Below are positions 1-23,122 of a DNA stretch of 64,000 bases, one piece after another. The notes beneath the pieces were generated by a model. It made no database searches. It had not been told where the DNA came from and saw only the letters and a program-made list of their open reading frames with translations. The DNA lies in contig SLRQ01000042.1 of NCBI GenBank assembly GCA_007130885.1, positions 1,232 to 65,231 of the forward strand, in the 5' to 3' direction. The translations under genes were made by a program, and so were the position numbers. The DNA is from Deltaproteobacteria bacterium. Its GTDB lineage: Bacteria; Myxococcota; Myxococcia; SLRQ01. Every line of letters starts with the position of its first letter. The stretch's first letter is position 1.

Positions 1-1054
1 GCTGGTCGAGCGTTCGGAGAACCTCCGGCAGATCCATTCCCGCGGCACAGGCACGCGAGCATCGCCCACATCCGGTACAGAGTATCTCCTCGAAACGCTT
101 CGGGTATATCGCGAACTTGTGCATTACTCTCTGCCGGTAGCGCGCGCTTTGTTCGGGCCTCGGGTTATGGCCGGACCCGTGCAGTGTGAACAGCGAGGCC
201 TGACAGGTATCCCAGTTGCGACGCCGGGTTCCCCGGTCGATTCCTTCGGGCTCATCTATGATGTCGAAGCAGTGGCAGGTTGGACAGACCGACGCGCATG
301 CTCCGCATCCATGGCAGCGATCCGCTATGTCGGCCCATACGTCATGTTCGAAGTTGGACTCGAGCCATGACTTGATCGCTCCAGGCTCGATATCGAGGTT
401 CTCGGACGCGCGATCGAGTGCCGCTTTTCGCAGCTCATCGGCCTTGCCTTCATCAGGCGGAGACTCGAACACATCTCGGTGAGCCTCAACGAGTTCTTCT
501 CCAGCCGGTGTAAGCACTTCGACTAGGTGGTTGTTGCCGCTGTCATCCACCGGTACCAGAAGAATGTCGGCACCCTTCAGGCTGTCCGGTGAAAGCCCGA
601 CAGCAGGGCAGAAGCAGGAGGAATCCTTTACCGCGCAGGCGCGCGAGATGATGGTCGTGGCTTTCCTGCGGCCGAACCATGGGTCATCCCGGTAGTCCCA
701 GCCCATCACTTTGTCCAGCACGGGTAGCGCGGCGGCGTCACAAGGAAAGGCCCCTACAACGACCGTCCTCGGATAGTCGCCGGAAGGCTGGTCCAGAGAG
801 ATGTCTCCCTTTACCTGACGCCAGCTCAGCAGCGCCTCGGTGGGTGGAAGGAAAAACTCCTTCAGGGAGAGGCGAGGCAGGGGACCGCCAAGGGCGATTC
901 TGCCGGCGTCCTCGATTTCGCGATAGTCGGCGACCGGATTGGAGGAGCTTTCCGTTGCGAGCACCGGAGCAATTACCCTTGCTCCCGCCTCTCGCAAGTC
1001 GTGGGTGAGCTTCGCCAGCCCGGCTTCTGTGAGGTATAGCTTTTCAGGCTTCAC
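1..1054 (-). CDS. flxB: FlxB/AsrA-like 4Fe-4S dicluster protein of the Hdr-Flx complex (partial, runs off window start)
   Basis: Not in the ORF track because it is open at the edge. Hand translation from a GTG at 1054 (GTGA overlap with the flxC stop) gives MKPEKLYLTEAGL..., PCDAAA, CFC and, near the edge, HNPRPEQSARYRQRVMHKF...CTGCGRCSRAC, typical of AsrA/HydB/FlxB. Position fits hdrCBA-flxDCBA order. Confidence 0.82.
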   Translation of the reverse strand, partial: MKPEKLYLTEAGLAKLTHDLREAGARVIAPVLATESSSNPVADYREIEDAGRIALGGPLPRLSLKEFFLPPTEALLSWRQVKGDISLDQPSGDYPRTVVVGAFPCDAAALPVLDKVMGWDYRDDPWFGRRKATTIISRACAVKDSSCFCPAVGLSPDSLKGADILLVPVDDSGNNHLVEVLTPAGEELVEAHRDVFESPPDEGKADELRKAALDRASENLDIEPGAIKSWLESNFEHDVWADIADRCHGCGACASVCPTCHCFDIIDEPEGIDRGTRRRNWDTCQASLFTLHGSGHNPRPEQSARYRQRVMHKFAIYPKRFEEILCTGCGRCSRACAAGMDLPEVLRTLDQ

Positions 1055-1923
1055 TTGATGAACTCCTGATCGTCTTCGAGACGGAAGTCACCCAGCGGGG
1101 AAGGTACATCGGGGTCGTCTCCGGCACGATAGTCGAATCGATCCTCGACCACCTGGTTGACCTTGCCCTTTATCAACGAGAGGGGAATGCCGGCGGGACA
1201 TGCCCTCTCGCACTCCCCGCAGTCCGAGCATCGGCCGGCAAGGTGCAAGGCATGAGTTATCTGCCACGCCAGGGCTCCCCGGAGATGAGGTGAGCTCTCC
1301 ACCCACGAAGGGTCTGTTTTCTCGCATACGCACCGCTCGCAAACACACATCGGGCAAACCTCGCGGCACGCATGGCATCGTATGCAGCGCTCCAGCTCCG
1401 AACTCCAAAAATCGAACCTCTCTTCCGGAGACATGGCCTCGATGCCCGCAATTCGAGATTTTCTGCGGTCGGTGGCCGGAGGTTCCGAAGGCAGCTCGCC
1501 GACGAGGTGGTCCACGTGTCCCGGCTCTCTCAGGTCGCAACCCGTGCATCGATCAGCAACATTCTCCTCGGAAAGAGGCCCGTTGGATTCGGGATCCCGG
1601 TACACACCGCCGCATCGTACTCCTATGAGGACCACGTCATCGCGGGAGATCTGGCTCTCGCGGAGGAGGCCCGCCACCGCGCGGGCGTCGCAACCCTTTA
1701 TGACCACGGCGGGCCGGCCTCGTTTTCGCAAGTGAGCGCGCCTGGGTGAAAGGTATACAGCAAGATTCTGTACTGCCCGATGATCGAACACGAGCCGGTT
1801 TGTCTCCTCGGGAGTTCGAATGAACGCGGGACGAACACCCCGAGGTCCTTCCTCGTAACCTATGACGACGCTGACGTCACCTTCGGACAGCAACTTACTC
1901 GAAAGCTCTTGAAGCTCGCGCAT
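1051..1923 (-). CDS. flxC: FlxC-like 4Fe-4S protein (FdhB/FrhB C-terminal-like)
   Basis: KGCD motif, CIRCHACREVCPMC and HLAGRCSDCGECERACP ferredoxin motifs; lies between the mvhD-like and asrA-like genes. Confidence 0.82.
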   Translation of the reverse strand: MRELQELSSKLLSEGDVSVVIGYEEGPRGVRPAFIRTPEETNRLVFDHRAVQNLAVYLSPRRAHLRKRGRPAVVIKGCDARAVAGLLRESQISRDDVVLIGVRCGGVYRDPESNGPLSEENVADRCTGCDLREPGHVDHLVGELPSEPPATDRRKSRIAGIEAMSPEERFDFWSSELERCIRCHACREVCPMCVCERCVCEKTDPSWVESSPHLRGALAWQITHALHLAGRCSDCGECERACPAGIPLSLIKGKVNQVVEDRFDYRAGDDPDVPSPLGDFRLEDDQEFIK

Positions 1924-1926
1924 GAT

Positions 1927-2391
1927 CTAGCCCTCGTCCACGAGATCTCTGTATGAGGTGAACGGCCCGAGCTCTCTCACGCGGGCAGTGGTCTCGTTGA
2001 CGATCTCCGACCACTTTCGTCCTTCCGACGCGGATACCCACGAGAAGGTCAACCGGTCGAGGTCAATTCCTAGAAAGCTCAATGTCTCGCGAAAAACCGC
2101 GAACCGGCGGCGGGCATGATAATTCCCGGCGGTGTAGTGACAATCGCCGGGATGACAGCCGCTGACTATTACGCCGTCCGCGCCTCTTTCAAAGGCCTTT
2201 ACGACGAAAAGGGGGTCGATGCGTCCGGTGCAGGGCAAGCGGACGATCCTTACGTTCGGCGCCATCTGTATACGGCTGGTGCCGGCCAGGTCGGCACCTG
2301 TGTAAGTGCACCAGTTGCACACGAACGCGACTATCCTTGGCTCGAAAGCCTCGCCCTCACTGCTGGGCCTTGCCGCTGTGGCCTCATTCAT
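1927..2391 (-). CDS. flxD: MvhD/FlxD [2Fe-2S] subunit
   Basis: FVCNWCTYTGADLAG, RLPCTGRID, GCHPGDCHY and WVSASEG are MvhD family motifs. Confidence 0.93.
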   Translation of the reverse strand: MNEATAARPSSEGEAFEPRIVAFVCNWCTYTGADLAGTSRIQMAPNVRIVRLPCTGRIDPLFVVKAFERGADGVIVSGCHPGDCHYTAGNYHARRRFAVFRETLSFLGIDLDRLTFSWVSASEGRKWSEIVNETTARVRELGPFTSYRDLVDEG

Positions 2392-2416: not shown

Positions 2417-4435
2417 CTACAAAGCGTTTATTGCCGCGAAGATCTGCGCGTCCGTGAAACCTTCCAGTTCTATGCTCTTGGAGGGGCAGGCTACCTGGCA
2501 GCTACCGCATCCCTGACAGACGCCTTCGTTCACTTCAGCTATCACCTTCTCGACCTCGCCGCTTCGGTTCAGCACCTCATATCGTTCCACCGCTCCATAC
2601 GGACAGGCGCGCTCGCAGTGGAAGCAACCGGAACAGGTTACCTTGTCGACTCCCGCTACCGTGGGCTCTCGTTCGAGCCGCTCCTTCGAGAACATCCCCA
2701 GAACCTTGGATGCGGTGGCGCTGGCCATTGCGACCGAGTCGGGTATGTCGCGCGGGGCCTGGCAGGCTCCCGCGACGAAAACCCCGGCCGTATTGGTATC
2801 GACAGGCCGCAGCTTCGGGTGAGCTTCGTTAATGAAGCCGTGCCCGTCGTAGGAAACGGACAGCTTTTGGGCCAGTGACTCGATGCCGGGCTGTGCCTGC
2901 ATGGCGGTGGCCAGCACCACCATGTCCGCGTCTATCTCCATTTGCTCGCCCGACAGCGTATCGAAGCCGGTCAGCCGGACCTTCTCGCCCTCGCGCTGGA
3001 TGCTGGAGACGCGGCCGCGGATGTACTTCGCGCCGTCTTCCTCGATCGCGCGGCGTACGAACTCGTCGTAACCTTTTCCGCCGGCGCGTATGTCCATGTA
3101 GAAGACTATGGCTTCTCCATCGTGGACCTTATGCCGGTAAAGCATGGTGTGCTTGGCCACATACATGCAGCAAAGCTTGGAGCAGTACTCGATGCCCTTG
3201 GATGGCTCTCGGGAGCCGATGCATTGCAGGAATACCACGCGCTTGGGGACCTTGCCGTCGGAAGGACGCACGATCTCTCCGCCGCTGGGTCCGGAAGCGG
3301 AAGCAATTCGCTCGAACTGCATTCCGTCGATTACGTCGGGGACCGTCCCGTAACCGTACTCTCCATATCCCGTTATCCCCTTGCGCGTTTGCTCCTTGCC
3401 TATGGAGTAGAGCTGATATCCGGTGGCGACGACGATCGCACCGACCTTTTCGGTGACAAACGTGTCTTCCTGCTCGAAGTCGATGGCGTCCCGCCCACAG
3501 GCCTCGGCGCACCTGCCGCACGCGGCCTTGGCCTTCTTCTTCTGCATGCCCTTGATTCGAAGGCAGTTCTCACGGTCTATGACCGGTATGTTGGGAACTG
3601 CTTGCGGGAAAGGCACATAGATGGCGGTTCGGTTGCCGAGCCCCGCGTCGAACTCGCTGGGAATCTTCTTCATTGGGCAGACGGACTGACATTCGCCGCA
3701 TCCGTTGCAGCGGGTCTCGTCCACGCCGCGAGCCTTCTTTCGAATCTTGACCGAGAAGTTCCCGATGTAGCCGTCCACCGATTCGATCTCGCTGTAGGTG
3801 AGCAGCTTGATGCGGGGGTGCTGGTGTACTTCGACCATGCGTGGCGTGAGAATGCACTGTGAGCAGTCAAGGGTGGGAAAGGTCTCCGAGAGCCTGCTCA
3901 TGTGCCCGCCGATAGACGGCTGCTTTTCCACCAGCACGACCTCACGGCCGCCGTCGGCCATGTCTAGGGCGGCTTGAAGCCCGGAAATGCCCCCTCCTAT
4001 TACGAGGGCACGCCGCTCCAGCGATATACTGATGGGTGCGAGAGGGGAGTTTCTCTTAATCTTCTCCGAGATGAACCGCGTAAGATCGATGGCCTTTGCC
4101 GTTGCGGCGTCGCGATCCTCGTGAATCCACGAACACTGCTCCCGGATGTTGGTCATCTCGCAGAGATAAGGGTTGAGCCCTGCCCCTTCCGTTGCTTTGC
4201 GGAAGGTTTTTTCGTGCATGTGCGGTGAGCACGCCGCGACTACCACGCCGGTAAGGTTCTTCTCGGCGATGGCCTCCTTGATGAGGTTCTGGCCGGGGTC
4301 CGAGCACATGTACTTGTAGTCCACGGCGTGAACTACGCCGGGAAGCTCACCACATGCGTTGGCTACCGCTTCACAATCGACAGTGCGGCCGATGTTCTCA
4401 CCGCAGTGGCAGACGAAGACACCGATGCGTGCCAT
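2417..4435 (-). CDS. hdrA: Heterodisulfide reductase subunit A (FAD, electron-bifurcating)
   Basis: RIGVFVCHCGENI, ACSP, NIREQCSW, GGGISG FAD motif, TFPTLDCSQCIL, YCSKLCC, FYMDIRA and C-terminal ferredoxin motifs. Confidence 0.96.
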   Translation of the reverse strand: MARIGVFVCHCGENIGRTVDCEAVANACGELPGVVHAVDYKYMCSDPGQNLIKEAIAEKNLTGVVVAACSPHMHEKTFRKATEGAGLNPYLCEMTNIREQCSWIHEDRDAATAKAIDLTRFISEKIKRNSPLAPISISLERRALVIGGGISGLQAALDMADGGREVVLVEKQPSIGGHMSRLSETFPTLDCSQCILTPRMVEVHQHPRIKLLTYSEIESVDGYIGNFSVKIRKKARGVDETRCNGCGECQSVCPMKKIPSEFDAGLGNRTAIYVPFPQAVPNIPVIDRENCLRIKGMQKKKAKAACGRCAEACGRDAIDFEQEDTFVTEKVGAIVVATGYQLYSIGKEQTRKGITGYGEYGYGTVPDVIDGMQFERIASASGPSGGEIVRPSDGKVPKRVVFLQCIGSREPSKGIEYCSKLCCMYVAKHTMLYRHKVHDGEAIVFYMDIRAGGKGYDEFVRRAIEEDGAKYIRGRVSSIQREGEKVRLTGFDTLSGEQMEIDADMVVLATAMQAQPGIESLAQKLSVSYDGHGFINEAHPKLRPVDTNTAGVFVAGACQAPRDIPDSVAMASATASKVLGMFSKERLEREPTVAGVDKVTCSGCFHCERACPYGAVERYEVLNRSGEVEKVIAEVNEGVCQGCGSCQVACPSKSIELEGFTDAQIFAAINAL

Positions 4436-5334
4436 CAGCCAACCTCCGTTGCCGCCGCGCTCTCACCTTCGCGAGGCCCGGGTATGCGAGAAATAAACGA
4501 CGCCGTGCTGACAAAGTGGCGTCCAAGACCGAGGGCTACGTGGTCCTGCCCCAACGCCAGACCGACGAGCTGTGAAAGGTATATGACAGGAATGTCCATC
4601 CCTCCTTCGCTGCGCCGGGCTATTGCCTTCTGCCTGAAGTCCAGGTTCGAGTGACACATTGGACAAGCCACGACCAATACATCCGCGCCTGCCCCGCGTG
4701 CGTCTTCCAAAATAGTGCGGGACAAACGAACGACCGATGAGGTTCTCGATAGAGAAAACCCTCCTCCGCAACAGTCCAGCCGCCGGTTCCAGCTCACCGG
4801 CTTGGCGCCGGTGGCCTTTACGACTGTTTCCATCATGGTGGGCGCTTCGACATCGTCTAGATCGTTCAGCTCCGGAGGCCTGACCAGTAGGCAACCGTAA
4901 TAGCAGGCAACCTTGATGTCCTCGAGCGGACGCTTTGCTTTCTCACGTACCTTGGGTGCCAGCTCCGCCAGGAGGCGCACCAACGATATCGGGCGTGCCG
5001 TTCCAACAGACCGACCTATGGCTTTCTCCACGGCCGCGCCGGTGGCCGGATCATTGTCCACGGCTCTGCGCGCCGCGGCCAGCCGGCTGTAGCATGCCGC
5101 GCAGGGAGCCAGTATCTGCTCGTGGCCTTGCTCCGCGGCAAGGGCCAAGGTGCGTGCCGGCAGCGCGACTCCTAGTAGATGGTTTGTCGCGTGCGCGGAC
5201 GTTGCTCCGCAACAAGCCCAGTCGTCGATTTCATTGATCTCAACGTCGAGTGGCCCAGTGATTACGCCGAGGCTCTCGGCGTACTCCCGTGCGGTTGCGT
5301 GCAGGGAGCAGCCGGGGAAGTAGCCTATCTTCAT
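4435..5334 (-). CDS. hdrB: Heterodisulfide reductase subunit B (CCG domains)
   Basis: YFPGCSL, WACCGA, CYYGCLL, CCGGG, ACPMCHSNLD. Confidence 0.95.
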   Translation of the reverse strand: MKIGYFPGCSLHATAREYAESLGVITGPLDVEINEIDDWACCGATSAHATNHLLGVALPARTLALAAEQGHEQILAPCAACYSRLAAARRAVDNDPATGAAVEKAIGRSVGTARPISLVRLLAELAPKVREKAKRPLEDIKVACYYGCLLVRPPELNDLDDVEAPTMMETVVKATGAKPVSWNRRLDCCGGGFSLSRTSSVVRLSRTILEDARGAGADVLVVACPMCHSNLDFRQKAIARRSEGGMDIPVIYLSQLVGLALGQDHVALGLGRHFVSTASFISRIPGPREGESAAATEVG

Positions 5335-5951
5335 GCGTTCTCCGCTCCTTCCGTGCCCGGATTCTGCTGCGCGGTGGTAGTGCTGGTTGAGTCGGACTCA
5401 TGCCGGGTGCATGCATCGAAGATCCGCCGAATCTCTTCAAGGCCCTGAATACGAGAGGGCGCCAGAGCAAGCTTTCCGCGGCCCAGCATGCCCGGAGCCG
5501 CCATGACGTCGGCGAAAAGCGCACCGCTCCGCATCTTGTAGCTCATTATGAGCCCCATCTCGAACAACCTGCCGGAGCGCTGAATCTGCTTGAGAAACGC
5601 GTTGTGGAATGCTCTGATGTTGCGAGGAGGCTGCGCGGCTCCCTCGTTCAGGGCGGTCTCACGAAGGCAGTCGATGATGCGCGCGGGATCGCAGCTGTTC
5701 GGGCACCTCGCGGTGCAAGTCTCACACGTAAGACACAGCCATATCGACTCGCTGGAAAGAAGCTGTTCCCTATCGTCGAACTGCAGCATGCGCAGGACGT
5801 CGTGAGGTCTAAGGCTGGTTTCTACCGCCATGGGGCATCCCGCGGAGCATTTGCCGCATTGGTAGCAGGTCGCGGGGTTCAAGCCGGTCTTGCGGCGCAC
5901 TTCTCCAGCCAACGTGGCGGGGGCTGCTGACTCGGGTATCGACATGCCCAT
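5331..5951 (-). CDS. hdrC: Heterodisulfide reductase subunit C
   Basis: CYQCGKCSAGCP and IWLCLTCETCTARCP; first gene of the hdrCBA operon, overlapping the hdrB start. Confidence 0.94.
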   Translation of the reverse strand: MGMSIPESAAPATLAGEVRRKTGLNPATCYQCGKCSAGCPMAVETSLRPHDVLRMLQFDDREQLLSSESIWLCLTCETCTARCPNSCDPARIIDCLRETALNEGAAQPPRNIRAFHNAFLKQIQRSGRLFEMGLIMSYKMRSGALFADVMAAPGMLGRGKLALAPSRIQGLEEIRRIFDACTRHESDSTSTTTAQQNPGTEGAENA

Positions 5952-6248: not shown

Positions 6249-6277
6249 TTGACTTGAGGAGACGCGGAAGCTAGGAG
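6249..6277 (+). promoter_or_regulatory. Possible sigma70-type promoter of rex-hyd operon
   Basis: TTGACT (6249-6254), 17 bp, TAGGAG (weak -10), directly upstream of the Rex-like boxes. Confidence 0.35.
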
Positions 6278-6279
6278 TG

Positions 6280-6314: not shown

Positions 6315-6323
6315 TGACCCTGG

Positions 6324-6965
6324 ATGATGTCCACACCAAAGAAAACAGTCAGCAGGCTCAGTATGTATCGGCGGCTTCTTCAGGCGGAGCTCGACCGGGG
6401 CGTATCGAACATTTTCTCCCACAATCTCGCTTCGCTTGCGGGATCGACGGCGGCCCAGGTCCGGCGTGACTTGACCTACATAGGATGCACCGGCAGCCCT
6501 AAGACGGGATACCCCGTATCGGAGCTGCGGGACGCCATCGGCAGGTGCTTGAGCCCGAACGGGGAGGAACGACTCGCGCTGGTTGGGGTGGGGGACCTTG
6601 GGCGAGCGATTCTCTCTCGCTTCAGGGGCAGGCAAGGGCACTTGTCGATTACGGCTGCTTTCGACACCGATATCAGCAAGACGGGGAGAGTTACGCACGG
6701 GTGTCGGTGTTACTCGATGTCCGAGATCGAAGATGTCGTCAGGCGGGAAGGCATCGTGGCGGCTATTCTCGCGGTGCCCGCGGATGAAGCGCAGGGTGCC
6801 GCCGAGACGCTGGCGATGGCCGGTGTGACCGGAATCCTGAACTTCGCACCGGTGTCGCTTCGGCTGCCACGAAACGTGCATGTCGAAAATAACGATTTGA
6901 CCATGGCAATTGAGAAGGTCGCTTTTTTTGGGCGGGAAAACCACAACGCGAAACGGAAACAGTAG
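6324..6965 (+). CDS. rex: Redox-sensing transcriptional repressor Rex
   Basis: RLSMYRR, AAQVRRDL, GY wing, GVGDLG Rossmann motif, GILNFAP. Confidence 0.95.
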   Translation: MMSTPKKTVSRLSMYRRLLQAELDRGVSNIFSHNLASLAGSTAAQVRRDLTYIGCTGSPKTGYPVSELRDAIGRCLSPNGEERLALVGVGDLGRAILSRFRGRQGHLSITAAFDTDISKTGRVTHGCRCYSMSEIEDVVRREGIVAAILAVPADEAQGAAETLAMAGVTGILNFAPVSLRLPRNVHVENNDLTMAIEKVAFFGRENHNAKRKQ

Positions 6966-6980: not shown

Positions 6981-7472
6981 GTGAAAGAGTCCGCGAAGAA
7001 GGTTAAGGCGATTTTAGCGAAATATCCGGATTCAGGTCGGGATGCATTGATACCGATACTGCAGGACATACAGGACGAACTGGGATACCTGCCGACGTCC
7101 GCGATAATGCAGGTGGGGGCGCATTTGGCACTCCCCTCGAGCAAGATCTACGGCGTGGCGACATTCTACAACCAGTTTAGATTTCAGCCGAAGGGACGAA
7201 ATCATATTACGATTTGTCGGGGCACGGCTTGCCATGTCAAAGGTTCGGGTAAGCTGCTCGAGAACGCTGTTGCGACGCTGAAGATCAAGCCCGGTCAAAC
7301 CAGTCGTGACAAGCTCTTCAGCTTGGAAACGGTAGCCTGTATGGGCGCTTGTGGGTTGGCTCCGGTGATAACGGTCAACGATGAGTTCAACGCAAAGGCT
7401 TCACCGGCGAAGCTCAATCGGCTTGCGCGGTGCTGCAAGGACGAGATCACGCAAGAACGGGAAAACAGCTAG
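6981..7472 (+). CDS. hydC: NuoE-like [2Fe-2S] hydrogenase subunit (HydC/HndA)
   Basis: GVATFY, CRGTACHVKG, ACMGACGLAP. Confidence 0.92.
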   Translation: MKESAKKVKAILAKYPDSGRDALIPILQDIQDELGYLPTSAIMQVGAHLALPSSKIYGVATFYNQFRFQPKGRNHITICRGTACHVKGSGKLLENAVATLKIKPGQTSRDKLFSLETVACMGACGLAPVITVNDEFNAKASPAKLNRLARCCKDEITQERENS

Positions 7473-10500: not shown

Positions 10501-10852
10501 CGACAGACCCGGTGTTTTTGCGGGTGGTGATGTCGTATCAGGACCGAGTACGGTGGTCGAAGCGATAGCGGCGGGTAAGAACGCGGCCAAAATGATCGAC
10601 AGGTACCTACGTAAAAAGGCGATGCGGGTACTTCCGAAGGTAGTGCTTCCAACTACTTACATTGCGCCGGTCGAAGACGATCTGAATGAAGATGAGACGG
10701 CGGAGCCCACGCGCGTTATTGCACCTCGAACTCAGGTTTCTGAAAGGACGGGATGCTTTGCCGAGGTGGAGCTTCCCCTCGAGGAGCGTGAAGCACTTTG
10801 CGAAGCGAGGCGGTGTCTGAGATGCGATCTGGATTTCACCCAGGCGGATTGA
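7580..10852 (+). CDS. hydB: NuoF-like FMN/NADH hydrogenase subunit (HydB) fused to a C-terminal GltD/NfnB-like FAD/NADP(H) oxidoreductase
   Basis: N-terminal thioredoxin-like FeS domain (GTCG...GCIGLCSEEP), GLRGRGGGGFP, NADEGDPGAFMDR, GGPSGG, ESCGKCIPCREG, SLCGLG. Then APCQTGCP...CARVCHHPCESIC, GGGPSG, GGGNSAID, YRRT, EARRCLRC. Confidence 0.9.
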   Translation: MTKNTPSNTAENCWPEPSPIHDDLLNWMPAGPLAAARAEGKKAIRAELSRLRRESVSKPVVFLGTGTCGLGAGAAKTLEAVRDYVEQGGLDVDVVEVGCIGLCSEEPILDVQLPRKARISFGSVTVTNLKDVLDGALKEDLSSIPKAEILGQFRGTGETWDGVRFIDEHPFMVRQRRVVLAASGIIDPTNIDEYIALGGYSALAKTLRGMTPIEVCDEVESSGLRGRGGGGFPAGKKWKFALGAESDRKYLICNADEGDPGAFMDRAVAESDPHRLIEGMLIAAYAIGASKSYIYIRAEYPLAIERLRSAIVQAREYGLVGENILDSGVNVDIVIKMGAGAFVCGEETALIHSIEGKRGMPRPRPPFPAVRGLFGKPTIINNVETLSNLSLILDRGAEWFAGMGTEGSKGTKVFALSGMVNRTGLLEVPMGTTLRQVVYEVGGGIPNNKPCKAVQIGGPSGGCVPEAHLDIPTDYEALKEFGTIMGSGGLVVVDDGTCMVDFAKFFMEFIQSESCGKCIPCREGTGRMLEILEALGRQRKDEKELDALLRIQGIMGLEKLARTIKDTSLCGLGQTAPNPVLSTLKWFREEYEAHVFERSCPAGACKDLVGAPCQTGCPVGTEAWRYVAHISRGEYPEAYEAIRSANPLPSTCARVCHHPCESICRAGSTGSQPIAIRSLKRFVVDAVEPSSYSPLVPTVGEGAKRVAVIGGGPSGLTAAHNLSLLGHKVTIIEREDRLGGMLVGAIPAYRLPREVLAKEIDALLNENIEVRYGEVLGRDISIDGLMDDYDAVYVATGSHKSKSLDLEGEDAKGIYRGIEFLNAHNLQGKELARGKVGVIGGGNSAIDAARVALRQKQVEQVTVFYRRTRAEMPAYEEEIEAGLEEGLVIEELVSPLSVSVKSGQLECFRLQRNKLGEPDESGRRRPVPIEGSELDVSLDTLIVAISEQPEETGLEKLRRTRWGTVEINMESHLTDRPGVFAGGDVVSGPSTVVEAIAAGKNAAKMIDRYLRKKAMRVLPKVVLPTTYIAPVEDDLNEDETAEPTRVIAPRTQVSERTGCFAEVELPLEEREALCEARRCLRCDLDFTQAD

Positions 10853-10935: not shown

Positions 10936-12657
10936 ATGATTGGTATCGAAGCCAACGGACGAACTGTTGAAGCCAAAGCTGGAGAGACGATTCTATCCGT
11001 GCTGCGCAGAGAGGGAATTCACGTGCCTACTCTCTGTCACATGGAGGGGCTCGAGCCCAGTGGGGCCTGTCGCCTTTGCGTGGTAGAGCTGGAAGGGAGC
11101 GCCAACTTGGTGCCGGCTTGCTCGTTTCCCGTATCCGAGGGAATGAAGGTGCGAACGGGAACCCCGAAGGTGCTCGAGGCGAGAAAGACCATAGTAGAGC
11201 TGCTCTTGAGCAATCATCCCGATGACTGCCTCTACTGCTCGCGTAGTGGCAATTGCGATCTGCAAAAGTTGGCGGGAGACCTCGGTGTTCGGCAAAGGCA
11301 TTACCGAGAGCCTCGACCCAGCAGGGAATTGGACGTATCGAGCCCGTCCATAATCCGTGACCCGGCAAAGTGCATTCTCTGCGGTAGGTGCGTTCGTGTT
11401 TGTGAGGAGGTGCAGGCGGTTTCGGCGATCGACTTCACGGGGCGTGGGTCGCGCGCAATGGTTACTCCGGCGTTCAATTCCGGTCTCAATATGTCGAGCT
11501 GCATCAATTGTGGACAATGCGTGGTGGTTTGCCCAACAGGTGCCTTGGCCGAGAGATCGAGTGTTCAGGAGGTAATGGATGCGCTCTCAGATCCTGATTT
11601 GACGGTGATCGTTCAGCATGCACCGGCTGTTTCGGTTTCCTTGGCGGAGGAAGCAGGGCTGAAGCCCGCCACGGATGTAGACGGTAAAATGGTCGCTGCT
11701 CTACGGCGTATCGGTTTCGACCGCGTCTTTGATACCTCTTTTACGGCTGACCTCACAATTATGGAAGAGGGCAGTGAGCTGGTGGAGCGCGTCAACAATG
11801 GCGGGGTGCTGCCGATGCTGACGAGCTGCTCTCCCGGTTGGATCAAGTTCGTAGAAACCTTCTACCCTGAGTTCATTCCGAATGTATCGACCTGCAAGAG
11901 CCCACAGCAGATGTTGGGAGCGCTCGTAAAAAGTTTCTTCGCGGAAAGGGAACAACTCGATCCCAAGAAGATCGTCAGCGTTTCCATAATGCCTTGTACC
12001 GCCAAGAAGTTCGAGTGCAGCAGGCCTGAGATGGCTAATGATTATGTGCCGGATGTCGATTACGTTCTGACCACCCGCGAGCTTGGGCAGCTACTTCGCA
12101 TGTTCGGACTGGATTTGGCCTCACTCGAGCCGGAAGCCGCGGATTCACCATTCGGTGAGCGATCTTCCGCCGGAAAGATCTTTGGAGCATCTGGAGGGGT
12201 GATGGAGGCGGCGGTCAGGTCCGCTCACTATTTATTGACCGGAGAAGAACTCCAGAATCTCAAGATTCAGCCGCTCAGAGGGATGGCGGGAGTGAAGGAG
12301 TTGCGTGCAAATGTCGGTGGAGTTGAAATTGGTGCCTGCGTGGTAAGCGGTCTTGGAAATGCGAGAAATTTGCTCGACCAGATCAAGGTGGGACGCGACG
12401 ATTTGCACTTCATCGAGGTGATGACATGTCCGGGCGGTTGCGTCGGTGGTGGAGGACAGCCGATAGGAACCGAGCGAGATGCCGTGAAGTCGCGTATGGA
12501 GACTCTTTATCGAATAGACCGTGAGGAACAGCTTAGAGTTAGTCACAAGAATCCATGGGTGCTGCGACTATACGAGGAGTTCCTTGGTAAGCCTTTGAGC
12601 CATAAGAGCCATAAGCTGTTGCACACCACCTATGACAAGCGACACGTGCCGCTATAA
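10936..12657 (+). CDS. hydA: [FeFe]-hydrogenase catalytic subunit, group A3
   Basis: N-terminal 2Fe-2S, His-ligated 4Fe-4S (HPDDCLYC), two 4Fe-4S; H-cluster motifs TSCSPGW, MPCTAKKFE, EVMTCPGGCVGGGGQP. Confidence 0.96.
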   Translation: MIGIEANGRTVEAKAGETILSVLRREGIHVPTLCHMEGLEPSGACRLCVVELEGSANLVPACSFPVSEGMKVRTGTPKVLEARKTIVELLLSNHPDDCLYCSRSGNCDLQKLAGDLGVRQRHYREPRPSRELDVSSPSIIRDPAKCILCGRCVRVCEEVQAVSAIDFTGRGSRAMVTPAFNSGLNMSSCINCGQCVVVCPTGALAERSSVQEVMDALSDPDLTVIVQHAPAVSVSLAEEAGLKPATDVDGKMVAALRRIGFDRVFDTSFTADLTIMEEGSELVERVNNGGVLPMLTSCSPGWIKFVETFYPEFIPNVSTCKSPQQMLGALVKSFFAEREQLDPKKIVSVSIMPCTAKKFECSRPEMANDYVPDVDYVLTTRELGQLLRMFGLDLASLEPEAADSPFGERSSAGKIFGASGGVMEAAVRSAHYLLTGEELQNLKIQPLRGMAGVKELRANVGGVEIGACVVSGLGNARNLLDQIKVGRDDLHFIEVMTCPGGCVGGGGQPIGTERDAVKSRMETLYRIDREEQLRVSHKNPWVLRLYEEFLGKPLSHKSHKLLHTTYDKRHVPL

Positions 12658-12747
12658 GAGACGTATCGTCTTGTGAAGTTGTTTGCGGCGATTATGTTCA
12701 ACTGTGCACCACGTGAATTTGGCTCATGACCAAAAACGAGAAGAATC

Positions 12748-13161
12748 ATGGAAAGCAAACAAAAGGTACTAATCGTTGACGATGACGAGGATCTGCTCGA
12801 GCAGCTTACTCAGATTCTCGAAGGTGCCGGCTACGAAGTCCGCACGGCGGCAAGTCAGGCCGAGGGCGAAGAGATGTTGCTCTCCATTCGTCCGGATTTG
12901 GCTGTCTTTGATCTCATGATGGAGGAGATGGACAGCGGATTCATGCTGTCACATTACCTCAAGAAACTATACTCTGACGTTCCAGTCATATTGCTCACCG
13001 CGGTGACATCGTCAACCGGCCTGTCGTTCCAAGAGTCATCCACTGAAGCCCGTAGCTGGGTGAAAGTAGATGAGGTTCTCGACAAGCCGGTCCGAGCCGA
13101 GCAGATCAAATCGGTAGTGGCTCGCCTATTGAGCGAGGTGAAAGGAGCGCCCGACGGGTAG
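12748..13161 (+). CDS. Single-domain response regulator (receiver only)
   Basis: LIVDDD, FDLMM (phospho-Asp), LLTA, KP; no output domain. Confidence 0.9.
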   Translation: MESKQKVLIVDDDEDLLEQLTQILEGAGYEVRTAASQAEGEEMLLSIRPDLAVFDLMMEEMDSGFMLSHYLKKLYSDVPVILLTAVTSSTGLSFQESSTEARSWVKVDEVLDKPVRAEQIKSVVARLLSEVKGAPDG

Positions 13162-13180
13162 GCGGCCCATTGAGGCATTT

Positions 13181-15193
13181 ATGTCGATCCCACAGCTGGT
13201 CAAAACAATCAAGGAACGCTGTCGAGTTTGTTATACTTGTGTACGTGAATGTCCAGCTAAGGCCATACGAATCGCCGAGGGGCAGGCAGAGGTCATTGCC
13301 GGTAGATGCATAGGGTGTGGAAGCTGCGTTTGTGTGTGCGGACGTGGCGCCAAACAGGTTCTTGATTGCGCCGGAGGCGTGAGAACCCTGATGGACGGGA
13401 CTGCCCCCGTCGCGGCTCTTTTGGCACCCACTTTCCCAGTCGAGTTCAGGGAACGCTCGGCCGAGGAAGTGGCGGGAATGCTTCGGGCCATTGGTTTTGC
13501 GAGCGTTCATGAAGTCGGCTTTGGTGCCGACCTTGTAGCGTTGCGTTATCGCCGGCTTCTTACCGAGAAAGAAGGAAGGCGTTATATCGCGTCAACCTGT
13601 CCCGCCGTTGTCGGCTATGTTGAGCGCTACTATCCGGATCTCATCGACTCATTGGCCCCCATCGTTTCCCCGATGGTCGCAATGGCCCGGGCACTGCGAG
13701 CACTACATGGAGAAAAGCAGAAGTTTGTCTTCATAGGACCGTGTATCGCGAAAAAGGGTGAGGCGTCGGATGCAAACCTCCGGAAAGAGATTGACGCCGT
13801 ACTTACGTTCAACGAGCTCCGTACAATGCTTGATGAGGCCGCTGTGGATTGGGATGATGTTAGTCCTTGCGGCTTCGACCCACCTTTTGCGGGCCGCGGA
13901 GCCCTGCTGCCAATAAGCAGAGGGCTGCTTCATGCCGCGGATATTCGCGAAGATCTGGCTGAAAACATGGTGGTGGCGGCCGATGGTCGAGTCGACTTTC
14001 TCGAGGCGCTGAAAGAGTTCGAGTCCGGCGATCTTAGGGTTCGATTGTTGGAGGTGCTCGCCTGTAAGGGTTGTATATCGGGACCCGGCCTGCGGCTCGA
14101 CGAGCCGCTTTTCAGTCGACGCAGGAGGGTCAGTGAGTTTGTGCGCGGTAAGAAGTCTTCATTCGACTGGGAAGAATGGTCCAACACGTTGCGAGGACTG
14201 GTCGACCTCGATCTAAGTCGGGCTTACACTTGTCGGGATGCGCGAACCGACACGCCGAGAGATAACGAGGTTCGAAAGATTTTAATCCGCATGGGAAAGG
14301 ATTCGGAGGAAGAGGAACTCAACTGCGGCGCCTGCGGATACGAAACGTGCGGAGAGCACGCTGTGGCGATACTCGAGGGGCTGGCCGAGACCGAGATGTG
14401 CCTTCCTCATACAATCGAGCAGCTTCACAATGCGGTCGATGACCTGGCTGACTCGAATCGTCGTCTCGCAACCGCGAAGGAGGCGCTTATGCACTCGGAG
14501 AAGCTGGCGAACATGGGGCAGCTAGCGGCTGGGATTGCTCACGAGGTGAACAATCCATTGGGCGTGGTGTTGATGTATGCGCATCTCATGCGTGATGAGC
14601 ATACTAACGACCCCGAAATTGTGGAAGATCTCGAGACCATCGTCCGAGAAGCGGATCGCTGTAAGAAGATTGTCGCGGGCTTGCTCAACTTTGCTCGACA
14701 AACATCCGTTGTTCGTCAGAGCACCGATGTCAGGGGGTTGGTAGAGAGAACGTGCAGGTCTCTACCTCCACCGGAGGGAGTCCGCGTCGCCTTCGAGCAG
14801 AACCTAGAGAATCCCTTGGCCGAGGTCGATGGGGATCAAATTGCCCAGGTATTGACGAACCTGCTGTGCAACGCATACGACGCCACCGTCGATGGCGGCG
14901 GTGAGGTCACTATCAGCACCTCCGGTAATGACGAAGTCTTGGTGCTGAAAGTGACCGATACGGGTAAGGGGATTTCAGCTGAGAATTTGCCGAAGATCTT
15001 CGAGCCGTTCTTTACTACAAAGCAGATCGGTAGGGGTACGGGGCTCGGGCTGGCTGTAACCTATGGAATCGTCAAGATGCACAAGGGGGAGATTGATGTG
15101 CAATCAAACTCGGATGAGACCAAAGGACCAACGGGGACCGAAGTCACCGTGACGCTGCTTCGCAACTCAGATCCTGATGTTGGAGAGGCATGA
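13181..15193 (+). CDS. Sensory (group C, histidine-kinase-linked) [FeFe]-hydrogenase-like protein fused to HisKA/HATPase
   Basis: [12 protein letters not shown] ferredoxin, variant H-cluster motifs ASTCPAVV / GPCIAKKGE / [23 protein letters not shown] FeS domain, AHEVNNPL H-box, N/G1/F/G2 boxes (NLLCNA, DTGKG, FFTTK, GTGLGL). Confidence 0.9.
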
Positions 15194-15194
15194 A

Positions 15195-16349
15195 ATGAAT
15201 GAGCATCTACATTTGCTGATTGTAGATGACGAGCCAGGCATGTTGGCGGGCGCTGTCCGTGCGCTCAAGGATTATCGAGTCCAGACACTCGATGAATCGG
15301 AAGAAGTTCGCTTCGAAATCGCAACTGCGGAGAACGGTGAGGTCGCGCTGCGCAAAATCGCAGGCGAATGCCCGGATATTATTCTGCTAGATTATAAATT
15401 GCCCGGAGTGAACGGATTGGAGGTATTGCAGAAAGTTACGGAACAGTACCCCGACGTCTTGACGATAATGATCACTGCCTATGCCACCCTGGAGACGGCG
15501 GTGCTTGCCACTAAGCAGGGGGCTTACGATTTTGTTGCAAAGCCTTTCACTCCCGCGGAGTTGAAGAACGTGGTGCAAAAGGCGGCTAGGCATATTCTGC
15601 TTGCTCGACGTGCAAGGCAGCTTGCGGAAGAACGCCGGAGAATTAGATTCGAGTTTATTTCCATTCTCGCCCATGAACTCAAGTCACCGCTGAATGCCGT
15701 CGAAGGATATCTCAGAGGTATGAGGGATCACGTTGCGGGTGAAGAGCTTGCCGCTTATGACAAGTCCATTGCGAGAAGCCTGCTCCGCGTCAACGGTATG
15801 CGAAAGTTGATCTACGATCTCCTGGACTTGACCAGAATCGAAAGCGGAGAGAAGAAGCGAAACCTGACTAGAGTCAGTGTTACTGATATAGCCAAGGAAG
15901 CATTGGCGAACCTGAGCGAGGATGCCCTCGGGCGAGATATTGAAATGGAGTTGGAGTCTACTGCAAATGTTGAGATGCAAGCGGACCGCGGTGAGCTGGA
16001 AATTATAATGAATAATCTTGTTTCCAACGCAGTGAAATACAACACAGATGGAGGTCGAGTAGGCGTTCGTGTTCTCGCGGGCGAAGAGACGGTGATCATA
16101 GAGGTCGACGACACCGGCATCGGATTGACGGAAGAGGAAGCGGCCCGTCTCTTCAACGATTTCGTGAGGATCAAGAACGAAAAAACTCGAGGCATACTCG
16201 GGTCCGGATTGGGACTTGCCATTGTGCGAAAGCTCGCCTCCTTGTATGGAGGTGAAGTCTCCGTCGAGAGTACGCCTGATGAGGGCAGCAAGTTTACAGT
16301 GGTATTGACGCGTTATCCCCGGAGTGAGGCTGCCTCGATGGGTAGTTAG
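15195..16349 (+). CDS. Hybrid receiver-histidine kinase
   Basis: LIVDDE, LLDYKLP receiver; AHELKSPL, NLVSNAVKY, DTGIG, GSGLGL. Start taken at ATG 15195 after GGAGAGG. Confidence 0.9.
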   Translation: MNEHLHLLIVDDEPGMLAGAVRALKDYRVQTLDESEEVRFEIATAENGEVALRKIAGECPDIILLDYKLPGVNGLEVLQKVTEQYPDVLTIMITAYATLETAVLATKQGAYDFVAKPFTPAELKNVVQKAARHILLARRARQLAEERRRIRFEFISILAHELKSPLNAVEGYLRGMRDHVAGEELAAYDKSIARSLLRVNGMRKLIYDLLDLTRIESGEKKRNLTRVSVTDIAKEALANLSEDALGRDIEMELESTANVEMQADRGELEIIMNNLVSNAVKYNTDGGRVGVRVLAGEETVIIEVDDTGIGLTEEEAARLFNDFVRIKNEKTRGILGSGLGLAIVRKLASLYGGEVSVESTPDEGSKFTVVLTRYPRSEAASMGS

Positions 16350-16352
16350 ACA

Positions 16353-17747
16353 ATGGTAGAAATTAAGCGAAAAGGAATAATCGAAGAAGATCAAATTTAC
16401 GAGACCCTCAAACGGGCACGTAGTCATGATTCGAGCATGGTTCGTGATATCTTGGCGAAGGGCAGGGCGCTAGAGGGGTTGGATGAGCAAGACATTGCGG
16501 TGCTGACCGGTGTGTCGGATCCAAACCTTCTAGCGGAGATGTTCGATGCGGCAAGAAATGTAAAGGATTTGGTGTACGGAAATCGGCTTGTGCTGTTCGC
16601 TCCGCTGTACATCTCCAACCTTTGCGGGAATGAATGCGTGTACTGCGCCTTCAGAGTGAGGAATACCGATGTCAAGCGGCGTGCGCTGGATCAGGAGGAG
16701 ATCGCGGATGAAGTAAGGCACTTGGTGTCTCAGGGTCACAAGAGGATACTGTTGGTGGCAGGAGAGGCATATCCACGAGAGGGCTTTTCCTACATCCTTC
16801 GTTCCATAGACACTATCTATGACTCCGCCCGAGGCCATGGTGAAATACGGCGTGCGAACGTCAATATTGCCCCGTTGACATCAGGCGAGTTCAAGCTTCT
16901 TCGTGAAGCAAGGATCGGCACTTATCAGTTATTCCAGGAAACCTATCATCAAGAAACCTATCGACAGGTGCATGTTTCCGGAAGGAAGATGGATTTCGAC
17001 TGGCGTATTTCAGCTATGGATAGAGCCGTGGAAGCTGGGATCGATGATGTCGGGATTGGCGTTCTTTTTGGTTTATTCGACTGGCGATTCGAGATTCTTG
17101 CATTGTTGCAACACATTCGGCATCTTGAGAGGAAGCACGGTATCGGGCCTCATACTATTTCCGTTCCACGACTCGAACCGGCGGTAGGTTCCGATATTGC
17201 GTCCCAACCTCCTCATCCTGTCTCCGATCTGGATTTTCGGAGAATTGTAGCGATTTTGCGGCTGGCGGTTCCTTACACGGGAATCATAATGTCAACACGC
17301 GAGAGTGCCGATATGCGCCGGGAGACTTTTGCTCTAGGCGTTTCACAGATATCGGCGGGAAGTCGCACCAATCCAGGGGGGTATGGGGCCGAGCGGCCGG
17401 ATGAGGCTCAGTTCTCGCTGGGGGATCATAGAAGCTTGGACGACGTGGTTAGGGATGTTGCTTCCCTTGGATACGTACCGTCGTTCTGTACTGCTTGCTA
17501 TCGTTTGGGAAGAACCGGCGGGGATTTCATGGATTTGGCCAAGCCCGGTCTAATCAAGACCCACTGCCAACCGAACGCTGTCGCTACATTTCAGGAGTTT
17601 CTTCTCGACTACGGGTCGCCGAGGACGCGCGAGGTGGGTCGAGAAACGATTGCAAGGGCAATGGAAGAGATGGATGGCGGTACCAGAAGAAAAACAGAAA
17701 GGATGCTAGGGCGCCTGAGAGAAGGGCGTCGTGATGTTTATTGTTGA
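16353..17747 (+). CDS. hydG: [FeFe]-hydrogenase maturase HydG (radical SAM)
   Basis: LFAPLYISNLCGNECVYCAF, YQLFQETY, GPHTISVPR, C-terminal auxiliary cluster SFCTACY...C (absent from ThiH). Confidence 0.95.
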   Translation: MVEIKRKGIIEEDQIYETLKRARSHDSSMVRDILAKGRALEGLDEQDIAVLTGVSDPNLLAEMFDAARNVKDLVYGNRLVLFAPLYISNLCGNECVYCAFRVRNTDVKRRALDQEEIADEVRHLVSQGHKRILLVAGEAYPREGFSYILRSIDTIYDSARGHGEIRRANVNIAPLTSGEFKLLREARIGTYQLFQETYHQETYRQVHVSGRKMDFDWRISAMDRAVEAGIDDVGIGVLFGLFDWRFEILALLQHIRHLERKHGIGPHTISVPRLEPAVGSDIASQPPHPVSDLDFRRIVAILRLAVPYTGIIMSTRESADMRRETFALGVSQISAGSRTNPGGYGAERPDEAQFSLGDHRSLDDVVRDVASLGYVPSFCTACYRLGRTGGDFMDLAKPGLIKTHCQPNAVATFQEFLLDYGSPRTREVGRETIARAMEEMDGGTRRKTERMLGRLREGRRDVYC

Positions 17748-17772
17748 TGGGATGGTATAGAGGAGTTGGCCG

Positions 17773-18975
17773 ATGAGAAGTGCTCCACGTAACCTTCGAT
17801 TACACATAGGCTTTCTGGGCAGGCGGAATGTAGGCAAGTCGAGTCTCCTCAATGCGCTGGCCGGGCAGGAGGTTGCGATAGTATCCCCGACACCGGGTAC
17901 TACGACCGACCCTGTTGAAAAGCCCATGGAGCTGCTGCCTTTGGGGCCGGTAGTGCTGGTCGATACTGCTGGAGTCGATGACGAGGGCGCTCTTGGAGAG
18001 ATGCGCATCAGTCGTACGAGGCGGGTGATCGAACGGGTGGACCTAGCGGTTTTGGTGGTGGACGGAGAATTGAGAGAGTTCGAAGAAAACTTGATAGATG
18101 AATTGAGGGCAAGAGGGGTGACCACGCTTGTTTGCTTCAATAAGGCTGACGAGATTAGGCCCGAGCAAAGAGCGCTGAATGATCTGTCAGTTCGAGGGAT
18201 CCCATACGTTGTAGCCAGTGCCAAGACGGGTGATGGCGTGGAAGAGTTGCGACAAGCGCTTTTGCGGGCGGCTCCGGAGGATCATTTCGAGGCACGAAGG
18301 ATAGTTGGTGATCTCGTGGGAGCCGGGGACCTCGTAGTCCTCGTCGTGCCCATAGATGATGAGGCCCCCAAGGGCCGTCTGATTCTTCCACAGGTTCAAA
18401 CATTGAGGGATCTGCTCGATTCGGATGCGGCGGCGGTCGTGACAAAGGAGTCTGGCCTAAGCCGGGTCTTGTCCGTGCTCGAGCGGCCGCCGAAGCTGAT
18501 CGTCACTGACTCGCAGGCTTTCGAGCACGTGATGAGCACAGCTCCGGAAAGTGTTCCGGTAACATCCTTCTCGATTTTGTTTGCCCGGCTGCAGGGCGAC
18601 CTAGGAGAGATGGTCAAGGGTGCCCGAAGCATCGAGCATTTACGCGATGGCGACAAGGTTCTGGTCGCCGAGGGATGTTCACATCACCCTATTGGAGAGG
18701 ACATCGGCCGAGTCAAGATTCCGAGATGGCTGCGAAAATACAGCGGAGCGGAACTTTTCTTCGAGACGGTGGCTGGACGAGACTTTCCAGAGGACTTATC
18801 TCCCTACAAGCTGGTGATTCACTGCGGCAACTGCATGGGCAACCGTAGAGAGATGCTCTCGCGGATTCTGCGCTGCAGCCAAGCCAATGTTCCCATCACG
18901 AACTACGGAATAACATTAGCTCTTTCCCTTGGAATCCTCGACAGAGCCCTGCGGCCGTTTTCCCCTTCCCATTGA
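17773..18975 (+). CDS. hydF: [FeFe]-hydrogenase maturation GTPase HydF
   Basis: GRRNVGKSS, GTTTDPV, DTAG, NKAD, APKGRLILPQ, EGCSHH, HCGNCM. Confidence 0.96.
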   Translation: MRSAPRNLRLHIGFLGRRNVGKSSLLNALAGQEVAIVSPTPGTTTDPVEKPMELLPLGPVVLVDTAGVDDEGALGEMRISRTRRVIERVDLAVLVVDGELREFEENLIDELRARGVTTLVCFNKADEIRPEQRALNDLSVRGIPYVVASAKTGDGVEELRQALLRAAPEDHFEARRIVGDLVGAGDLVVLVVPIDDEAPKGRLILPQVQTLRDLLDSDAAAVVTKESGLSRVLSVLERPPKLIVTDSQAFEHVMSTAPESVPVTSFSILFARLQGDLGEMVKGARSIEHLRDGDKVLVAEGCSHHPIGEDIGRVKIPRWLRKYSGAELFFETVAGRDFPEDLSPYKLVIHCGNCMGNRREMLSRILRCSQANVPITNYGITLALSLGILDRALRPFSPSH

Positions 18976-23121: not shown

Positions 23122-23122
23122 T

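Follow-up and report, generated by a model that had tools for sequence, protein, structure and literature searches.

A 64,000-nucleotide stretch of a genome deposited as Deltaproteobacteria bacterium (assembly GCA_007130885.1, contig SLRQ01000042.1; positions 1232-65231 of contig C52 in our source genome G000, hereafter the window) carries two divergent operons of H2 and redox metabolism. One, hdrCBA-flxDCBA, has native base composition and is predicted to encode a Flx-Hdr type NADH:ferredoxin/disulfide module. The other is a cassette which runs from rex via hydCBA and a three-gene phosphorelay with an H-cluster histidine kinase to hydG and hydF. In our overall reading, which is probably correct, the native Flx-Hdr operon stands beside a conserved cassette that was acquired horizontally, in a member of the Myxococcota that appears to lack terminal oxidases. 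None of the parts is new; what is new, though no surprise, is to find them in this lineage. What is added is a documented Myxococcia-like lineage without oxygen respiration, which would use ferredoxin- and NADH-linked H2 metabolism. The machinery would have arrived as a ready-made, self-regulated cassette common to many uncultured anaerobic phyla. This raises two testable problems, i.e. the coupling of the hydrogenase with NADH and NADPH modules and the route of an H2 signal without an encoded output regulator.

Gene identities, synteny, distribution, base composition, the positions of the Rex boxes and the genomic gene content were read directly from the DNA. Genes were called from a listing of open reading frames (ORFs) and by Pfam and NCBIfam profile searches. 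Every hdr, flx, rex, hyd and kinase gene named in a preliminary description of this DNA was found at its place (Table 1).

Distribution and origin of the cassette

One genome per species was scanned with an alignment of the kinase. This yielded at least 601 pattern matches, and 595 of them proved to be relatives. From these at least 595 related loci the best 80 (L023-L102; 53-65% identity) were analysed and their neighbouring genes were located by tblastn with the window proteins. The cassette from rex to hydF is conserved, including its gene order, across more than 10 phyla (at least 80 genomes); the titles of the best 80 name Planctomycetota, Acidobacteriota, Hydrogenedentota, Lentisphaerota, Latescibacterota, Nitrospirota, Myxococcota, Elusimicrobia and others. 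hydA was directly upstream of the kinase gene in 66 of 80 loci. Among loci with enough flanking DNA, rex was present in 43 of 54 (at least 6.5 kb upstream), the response regulator-kinase gene in 62 of 69 (at least 1.8 kb downstream), and hydG and hydF in 32 and 33 of 61, respectively (at least 4.5 kb downstream). Clustering of all ORFs in the related loci revealed no other conserved plus-strand gene family. Genes for hdr adjoined the cassette in only two of the 80 loci, one of which had no rex. Judged by this synteny, the stretch from rex to hydF is not a local invention but a widespread conserved cassette.

Two variants of the cassette exist and were unmixed among the 58 loci scorable for both traits. 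A fused HydB together with a receiver gene ahead of the kinase gene, the type of the window, was present in 14 of 58 loci. Those with an unfused HydB had the receiver after the kinase (41 of 58) or none was seen (3 of 58). By the classification in the HydDB article, the window kinase is a member of group C1 without real difference (PMC5037454). A kinase-fused group C hydrogenase near Rex was noted in groundwater Elusimicrobia (preprint 10.1101/765248); there, the H-domain-kinase fusion adjoins a group A hydrogenase and Rex is nearby, as in the window. An Elusimicrobia-labelled locus (L099) is among our best 80. Compared with these group C1 precedents, our data add a new lineage, a division of the cassette into two variants and the absence of an output regulator.

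The origin of the cassette was approached with a tree of concatenated HydA and kinase high-scoring segment pairs (HSPs) from tblastn (65 rows, 1227 columns; IQ-TREE quick, LG+G4). It comprised 64 of 97 loci; in the other 33, no HydA HSP with at least 90% query coverage adjoined a HydS HSP of like coverage. The window grouped with G004, a genome from another genus of the same family (support 100), and next with L024, a Planctomycetota-labelled metagenome-assembled genome (MAG; support 99). Around them in the tree are copies of the fused type from Phycisphaerae and Lentisphaerota. A separate, starred clade was formed by six further copies from Myxococcota (G020, G247, G269, G051, G129 and L065). 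Joining the window and G004 with these copies cost 119.6 log-likelihood units in an approximately unbiased (AU) test (p-AU 0.0147). Identity to L024 (HydA 78%, HydB 73%) was higher than to G020 from the same class (63% and 58%). Among five family members only G000 and G004 carry the cassette. From hydC to the DRTGG gene the DNA constitutes the longest run of low G+C content (GC) in the source genome, with 9 windows of 2 kb; the runner-up has 5. The location in this run and the grouping with a Planctomycetota-labelled copy make horizontal acquisition likely. We infer, also for the direction of transfer, that the cassette was probably acquired by the ancestor of G000 and G004.

A number of points weigh against acquisition. 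The tree is a quick one, made from tblastn HSPs of part of the loci. The group in the AU test was named after the tree had been seen, and the same-phylum rows L094, L130, L127 and L129 were omitted. Organism labels derive from the titles of MAGs at NCBI, so that errors are possible. The nearest outside copy, L024, has a GC of 0.68, which is not low, the G004 copy does not deviate (0.575 vs 0.576), and rex in the window is near-native (0.595). The window has no tRNA genes, the island edges have no mobility genes, and flanking repeats were limited to short chance-level matches. Finally, two genomes of the same phylum, G052 and G126 (both family f12), share with the window a receiver gene that precedes the sensor kinase gene; a fused HydB is found in G052, while the hydB of G126 lies off the locus. 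Because these genomes share traits with the window, old vertical descent with many losses has to be considered. The cassette would then be ancestral in anaerobic Myxococcota and lost in aerobic ones, with the low GC caused by selection or a gene-specific bias. The [FeFe]-hydrogenase domain was present in 21 of 301 sampled genomes of the phylum (G000 included), concentrated in few families (f5, 6 of 8; f12, 9 of 18; f21, 2 of 2), which would agree with such a history, as do the inconspicuous GC of the G004 copy and the borders free of mobility hallmarks. Opposed to it are the support for L024 as next relative, the AU test, the higher identity to L024 than to G020 and the tree rows from Planctomycetota, Lentisphaerota and Acidobacteriota, which set the window and G004 apart from both G052 and the remaining Myxococcia copies. 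Furthermore, the cassette occupies the longest low-GC run of the genome while a second hydrogenase on contig C21 has native GC. On balance we consider vertical inheritance unlikely and prefer horizontal acquisition.

Two observations concern the surroundings. In L024 an ORF resembling an IS1595-family transposase (positions 1400-2311; 59 bits, cut-off 75) is located just upstream of rex. In the window, three genes of acyl-CoA metabolism downstream of hydF (19107-24166) share the low GC of the island and were found in 0 of 80 related cassettes.

Table 1. Coordinates of genes and sites in and next to the window.
Feature	Position	Strand	Evidence
flxA	L004:352-1302 (contig, just upstream of window)	-	NAD_binding_1 + DHODB_Fe-S_bind; resembles sulfhydrogenase gamma subunit
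flxB	2..1054, cut by window start; full gene 369 aa on contig	-	Fer4_22, 106.8 bits
flxC, Fe-S protein	1051..1923	-	Fer4_8, Fer4_17
flxD, MvhD-like	1927..2391	-	PF02662 FlpD, 180.9 bits
hdrA	2417..4435	-	FAD + Fer4 domains; HdrA2 model 777 bits (under cut-off 1100)
hdrB	4435..5334	-	two CCG domains
hdrC	5331..5951	-	Fer4_17, Fer4_8, Fer4_9
tentative rex promoter TTGACT-17 nt-TAGGAG	6249..6277	+	read by eye; absent from consensus-scan list
two adjacent Rex-box-like palindromes	6281-6296, 6298-6313	.	consensus scan, at most 2 mismatches; only matches in window
rex	6324..6965	+	NF003995 196.7 bits (cut-off 126); Put_DNA-bind_N (PF06971) + CoA_binding (PF02629)
hydC, NuoE-like	6981..7472	+	PF01257, 163 bits
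hydB, 1090 aa, NuoF-like part fused to GltD-like part	7580..10852	+	Pfam: Complex1_51K, SLBB, NADH_4Fe-4S; PDB matches
hydA, M3-type [FeFe]-hydrogenase catalytic subunit	10936..12657	+	NF040763 833.5 bits (cut-off 765)
single-domain response regulator, 137 aa	12748..13161	+	Response_reg
H-cluster histidine kinase (HydS-HK, group C1 type)	13181..15193	+	Fer4, Fe_hyd_lg_C, PF04060, HisKA, HATPase_c
receiver-histidine kinase hybrid	15177..16349	+	Response_reg + HisKA + HATPase_c
hydG	16353..17747	+	TIGR03955 508.7 bits (cut-off 312)
hydF	17773..18975	+	TIGR03918 547.7 bits (cut-off 326)
acetyl-CoA hydrolase/transferase (CoA-transferase) fused to GNAT domain	19107..21005	+	Pfam
ADP-forming acyl-CoA synthetase, fused alpha-beta	20977..23121	+	CoA_binding_2, Succ_CoA_lig, Ligase_CoA_2, ATP-grasp_5
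AAA_26 + DRTGG protein, like Pta N-terminal part; end of low-GC run	23123..24166	+	Pfam
MXAN_5187-family protein, first native-GC flank gene	24268..26070	+	NF041621 94 bits (cut-off 30); NF041620 192 bits (cut-off 200)

Fused hydrogenase and H-cluster kinase

By its domains HydABC is assigned to group A3. HydA contains Fer2_4, NADH-G_4Fe-4S_3, Fer4_7, Fe_hyd_lg_C and Fe_hyd_SSU domains, and a NuoF-like HydB and a NuoE-like HydC are encoded next to it. In the PDB, HydA scored best against 8a6t_A and 7q4v_A, which are HydA1 chains of bifurcating enzymes (604-609 bits, full length). In these respects the enzyme resembles HydABC from A. woodii and T. kivui (7q4v and 8a6t). The L1 motif of HydA reads TSCSP instead of TSCCP in the window. 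TSCSP is shared by 63 of 64 HydA HSPs from the cassettes and by A. woodii HydA1 (7q4v_A); its distribution suggests a trait of this A3 clade.

HydB differs from those of A. woodii and T. kivui by an additional GltD-like module of about 470 residues, which replaces most of the C-terminal ferredoxin-like end. The NuoF-like part comprises residues ~61-609, with PDB matches to NfnB (9n5u_B) and A. woodii HydB (7q4v_B) over residues 61-656 (~635 bits). The module (~610-1083) is of the GltD-like FAD/NADPH type known from Stn/NfnABC: residues 608-1083 match 9bov_A, 9n5u_A and 8oh5_C (312-362 bits). The alignment is end-to-end with chain residues 102-567 of 9bov_A (362 bits) and of 8oh5_C and with 103-524 of 9n5u_A, including a GGGN(S/T)A motif. 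Scores were better to the large subunits of Stn/NfnABC than to NfnSL-type NfnB or GltD. The second nucleotide motif in HydB is GGGNSA. A GxGxxA motif is linked to NADP(H) in PMC7483475; GGGNSA fits this form and supports the assignment as an NADP(H) module. HydABC may therefore also exchange electrons with NADP(H).

The position of the module is different from Stn/NfnABC. There, as described in the same article, it sits inside a NuoG-like subunit and no hydrogenase is present (PMC7483475), whereas in the window it is carried by the NuoF-like subunit, and the counterpart of NuoG is a genuine HydA. By description, i.e. without a sequence comparison, the fusion can be likened to the archaeal group F hybrid hydrogenases, in which a NuoF-like HydB is joined with a glutamate-synthase-type domain (PMC11216029). 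The archaeal complex pairs a NiFe with an FeFe hydrogenase and has no Rex or kinase cassette. In the literature we found a HydB-glutamate-synthase fusion for archaeal complexes only. The text of the Bfu family paper contains neither 'fused' nor 'fusion'; supplements, which were outside the search, may list such fusions. Proteins with this fusion are common: among the best 120 relatives of HydB 108 have at least 1000 amino acids, under generic names only.

One point bears on the coupling to ferredoxin. A C-terminal 2x[4Fe-4S] ferredoxin-like domain of HydB is reported to separate bifurcating from non-bifurcating enzymes (PMC7311640). In the window the alignment to A. woodii HydB (63-640, 635 bits) stops at chain residue 575 of 599, and a Fer4_20/GltD-type module starts at ~604-610. 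The canonical domain is replaced after ~640, and ferredoxin coupling may therefore differ; bifurcation is putative here.

The kinase starts with a ferredoxin domain with eight cysteines. In the H-domain (Fe_hyd_lg_C, 162 bits) C140, C188, C295 and C298 are invariant in the kinase alignment. The L1 motif is ASTCP; Thr139 aligns with the first cysteine of the TSC motif of HydA, i.e. the proton-relay residue C299 of CpI, and the 'tsccp' of CpI aligns with 'tscsp' of the window HydA. The proton-relay position was without cysteine in the 24 of 64 HydS HSPs that were caught by the pattern. L2 is GPC (64 of 64 HydS HSPs) and L3 is EVLAC..GC. A Cx2Cx4Cx16C motif (C382, C385, C390 and C407; PF04060), present in 63 of 64 HSPs, runs directly into HisKA (445-508, with H454), followed by HATPase_c (550-659); the best PDB match was ZraS. 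To our knowledge, no H-cluster histidine kinase of group C1 has ever been assayed.

The motifs match the sensory features given for TmHydS/TamHydS in PMC8163306: the N-terminal ferredoxin domain, the loss of the C299 relay, the altered M353/M497 positions and the Cx2Cx4Cx16C motif are shared. Unlike these proteins the window kinase has no PAS domain, and the cluster motif leads straight to HisKA and HATPase_c. The kinase is probably an H2 sensor. Alternatively, it might sense redox state, CO or O2 through its clusters, or be a slow catalytic hydrogenase joined to a kinase. In favour of this, HydDB describes class C1 as 'histidine kinase-linked (putative)' with a role listed as 'undetermined' (PMC5037454), and a slow turnover of H2 is retained by the related HydS proteins (PMC8163306). 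However, the cysteines of the H-cluster are kept, the proton-relay cysteine is lost, and the gene is linked to hydA and the maturase genes; we regard a function other than H2 sensing as improbable.

In the single-domain receiver D11-D13, D55 and K113 are invariant in 33 sequences and T84 is found in at least 90%. A DNA-binding response regulator was absent from the cassette, both here and as a conserved family in the related loci. The maturase hydE is also missing from the cluster. Two HydE matches above the cut-off were located at contig ends elsewhere in the genome (G000:C9:38799-39827 and G000:C14:5-931), which means that the maturase set is split from hydG-hydF and that hydE may be duplicated. 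The term 'self-contained', which had been applied to this locus, finds no support in view of the distant hydE and a relay without DNA-binding output.

Proposed Rex control, the divergent spacer and Flx-Hdr

Rex has the winged-helix N-terminal domain (PF06971) and the Rossmann domain (PF02629) of its family, and NF003995 scored above the cut-off. The two Rex-box-like palindromes are located 10-43 nt upstream of rex, end 10 nt before its start codon and are 330 nt away from hdrC. A Rex box no more than ~65 nt upstream of rex was found in six of eight related cassettes scanned, and L130 has the same tandem pair. In G004 a promoter of the form TTGACA-17-TATGTT is at the matching place, then follows one Rex box. 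The proposed control of the rex-hyd operon by Rex is thus supported by the boxes here and in related cassettes, and autoregulation of rex-hyd is well supported as far as such sites can tell. Two reservations apply. The scans used a Rex-box consensus from the literature, and two matches per window are not unusual by count (38 of 100 shuffles); position and conservation alone carry weight. A consensus scan for promoters and terminators (5500-25400) yielded fewer sites than in shuffled sequences (6 vs 10.1 and 15 vs 17.9), none of them in the spacer or at operon ends.

With at most one mismatch the source genome has four Rex-box matches, two at rex, one at the start of a gene for an iron-containing alcohol dehydrogenase and one elsewhere. 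The dehydrogenase site (one mismatch; G000:C11:79012, L140 2513-2528) is at the gene start, divergent from an aminotransferase gene. This gene is likely a further Rex target, judged by the site. No adh gene was found beside hdr-flx on the DNA examined.

It had further been proposed that a single divergent promoter region controls both complexes. In its full form, this would be a locally evolved hub in which Flx-Hdr and HydABC are both under Rex and the H2 sensor. The operons are divergent with a spacer of 372 nt, and G004 keeps this arrangement. Rex regulons that include flx-hdr have been described for Desulfovibrionales. Yet, the boxes are beside rex and 330 nt from hdrC, and at up to three mismatches the hdrC-rex spacer has no further Rex site; shared control of Flx-Hdr is not supported by this. 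Apart from the box region, the spacer sequences of G000 and G004 show little alignment; as mentioned above, only two of 80 related cassettes have hdr next to them, and the hdr-flx and hyd genes differ in GC. A single control region, and with it the local hub, is therefore regarded as improbable.

All seven genes of a FlxABCD-HdrABC complex, flxA-D and hdrA-C, are clustered; FlxD is MvhD-like and FlxA binds FAD/NAD by its domains. D. vulgaris FlxABCD-HdrABC is made up of the same types of gene (Ramos 2015, as described in PMC10084766). A difference is the disulfide acceptor DsrC, which has no counterpart here; it is a feature of Desulfovibrio and not of the wider family. DsrA and DsrC were not found in the source genome (for DsrC no match to PF04358 or TIGR02064), and the disulfide partner must be something else. 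The HdrA relatives at 74-80% identity have 670-693 amino acids. The 13 named ones bear mixed labels, i.e. four Myxococcales/Myxococcota, one Bradymonadales, four 'Deltaproteobacteria' and four Acidobacteria/Thermoanaerobaculia.

We infer the direction of catalysis, NADPH coupling, H2 sensing and repression by Rex in the following working model. Pyruvate:ferredoxin oxidoreductase (PFOR) would supply reduced ferredoxin and catabolism NADH. HydABC would release H2 from both by confurcation, or operate in reverse, and NADP(H) would be connected with the same chain of iron-sulfur clusters through the GltD-like module on HydB. Rex would bind the pair of boxes that directly follows its promoter and would shut the operon at a low NADH/NAD+ ratio. 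The H-cluster kinase would report H2 through a change in how it phosphorylates both receivers, and the relay would have its target outside the cassette. A bolder joint reading goes beyond this: the cassette may be a horizontally mobile, self-regulating H2 module which converts its host to fermentative H2 metabolism in one step; the fused-HydB form may be a single Bfu-type enzyme joining H2, NAD(H), NADP(H) and ferredoxin; and the relay, having no DNA-binding output, may act on Rex or on the enzyme itself. As a whole we consider this reading doubtful.

Integrity of the contig, host and lifestyle

GC drops from ~0.61 to 0.51-0.565 between ~6 and ~24 kb, which raises the question of a mis-join. 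In G004 a single contig has the order hdrA-hdrB-hdrC, divergent from rex-hydC-hydB (1092 amino acids)-hydA-response regulator-kinase-response regulator/kinase, with 67-84% amino acid identity. On a second contig of G004 the DRTGG gene (70% identity) directly adjoins the MXAN_5187 homologue. Both junctions therefore recur in an independent organism, and we conclude that the contig was joined correctly. A further contig, 2555 nt long and from a different sample, spans 5500-7519 with zero differences. Public runs were checked with Logan contigs, which were short, with a depth of ~1-8. Coverage across ~24.2 kb was seen in all four runs; a bridging contig was not among the pieces listed, and one piece of the X4 run (23865-24267) ends at the gene start near this junction. 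One contig of the X2 run contradicts our map. It joins position 6398 in rex to 18421 in hydF and skips 12,022 bases; the short side has 20 letters, which is below the reliability hint, and the joint is probably spurious. That the energy block is an assembly or binning artefact from another organism is highly improbable: it is located at a contig end, bin contamination is 3.4% and GC shifts at ~6 and ~24 kb, but both junctions recur in a different genus at 67-84% identity, the contig also bears PNPase, CarD and MXAN_5187, and the contig from the other sample bridges 5500-7519.

The source assembly has 3.78 Mb in 118 contigs and a GC of 0.599; it is rated 97.8% complete and 3.4% contaminated. 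According to its gene content, the host appears to be a small-genome member of the Myxococcota without haem-copper or bd oxidase, Myxococcia-like and near Anaeromyxobacter; the class is shared with Myxococcus-type genomes of 9-10 Mb, a membership which rests on kinship codes. Among the best 120 relatives of polynucleotide phosphorylase (PNPase) 14 have organism names, 12 Anaeromyxobacter(aceae) and two 'Deltaproteobacteria'. PNPase identities of 54, 51, 51, 47 and 43% to five named genomes did not separate Myxococcota from Acidobacteriota, whereas the wider protein search did. The MXAN_5187 family model matched in 40 of 41 kin genomes and in 0 of 14 control genomes, with 680-720 bits in three 9-10 Mb genomes of the same class. 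With the window protein, the domain model passes the cut-off and the full-length model does not (192 vs 200 bits). A CarD homologue (38328-39899 together with the ORF that follows it) has CarD_TRCF_RID and CarD_C domains, an acidic stretch and a long lysine-rich basic tail (K/A/P/T-rich), which we take to be the histone-H1-like form as in Anaeromyxobacter rather than AT-hooks. The placement in the Myxococcota was upheld by PNPase, MXAN_5187 and CarD, and none of the markers, MYXO-CTERM included, pointed outside the phylum. The claim that carD/carG and MYXO-CTERM genes are on the same DNA holds for carD. The 198-residue ORF that follows, the putative carG, had no family match; its H..G..H.C....C stretch is presumably reminiscent of CarG. 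MYXO-CTERM (TIGR03901) had no match on the contig of the window at E <= 0.01, while seven matches were elsewhere in the genome and none in 14 controls.

An anaerobic, ferredoxin-based lifestyle was corroborated by the gene content. COX1, cytochrome bd and NiFe hydrogenase gave no match in the source genome at 97.8% completeness, nor did DsrA and DsrC; a single-chain PFOR-type frame is present and RnfC scored above the cut-off. COX1 was present in the three family members without an [FeFe]-hydrogenase domain (G001-G003) and absent from the cassette carriers G000, G004 and G020; G004 has a bd oxidase. The anaerobic, H2-evolving line of Myxococcota is real but not unprecedented. Anaeromyxobacter is a facultative anaerobe. 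A putatively syntrophic class of Myxococcota was reported from digesters (PMC7382037). Our literature search revealed no paper on this cassette in Myxococcota or on fermentative Myxococcota from soda lakes. The metagenome runs that contain the window DNA are labelled soda-lake, alkali-sediment or salt-lake and come from at least three studies; no RNA run was listed among them.

Two further observations were made in this genome. A second pair of HydA (587 amino acids) and HydB (722 amino acids) is encoded on C21 (L005 9855-13783, minus strand) beside recA, with a native GC of 0.617. No sensor kinase belongs to it; genes for a KaiC-like protein and a hybrid kinase are its neighbours. In the window, the PNPase ORF (55423-57900; TTG start, 825 amino acids) exceeds the listed relatives (714-791 amino acids) by 34-111 residues, and the true start is probably further in.

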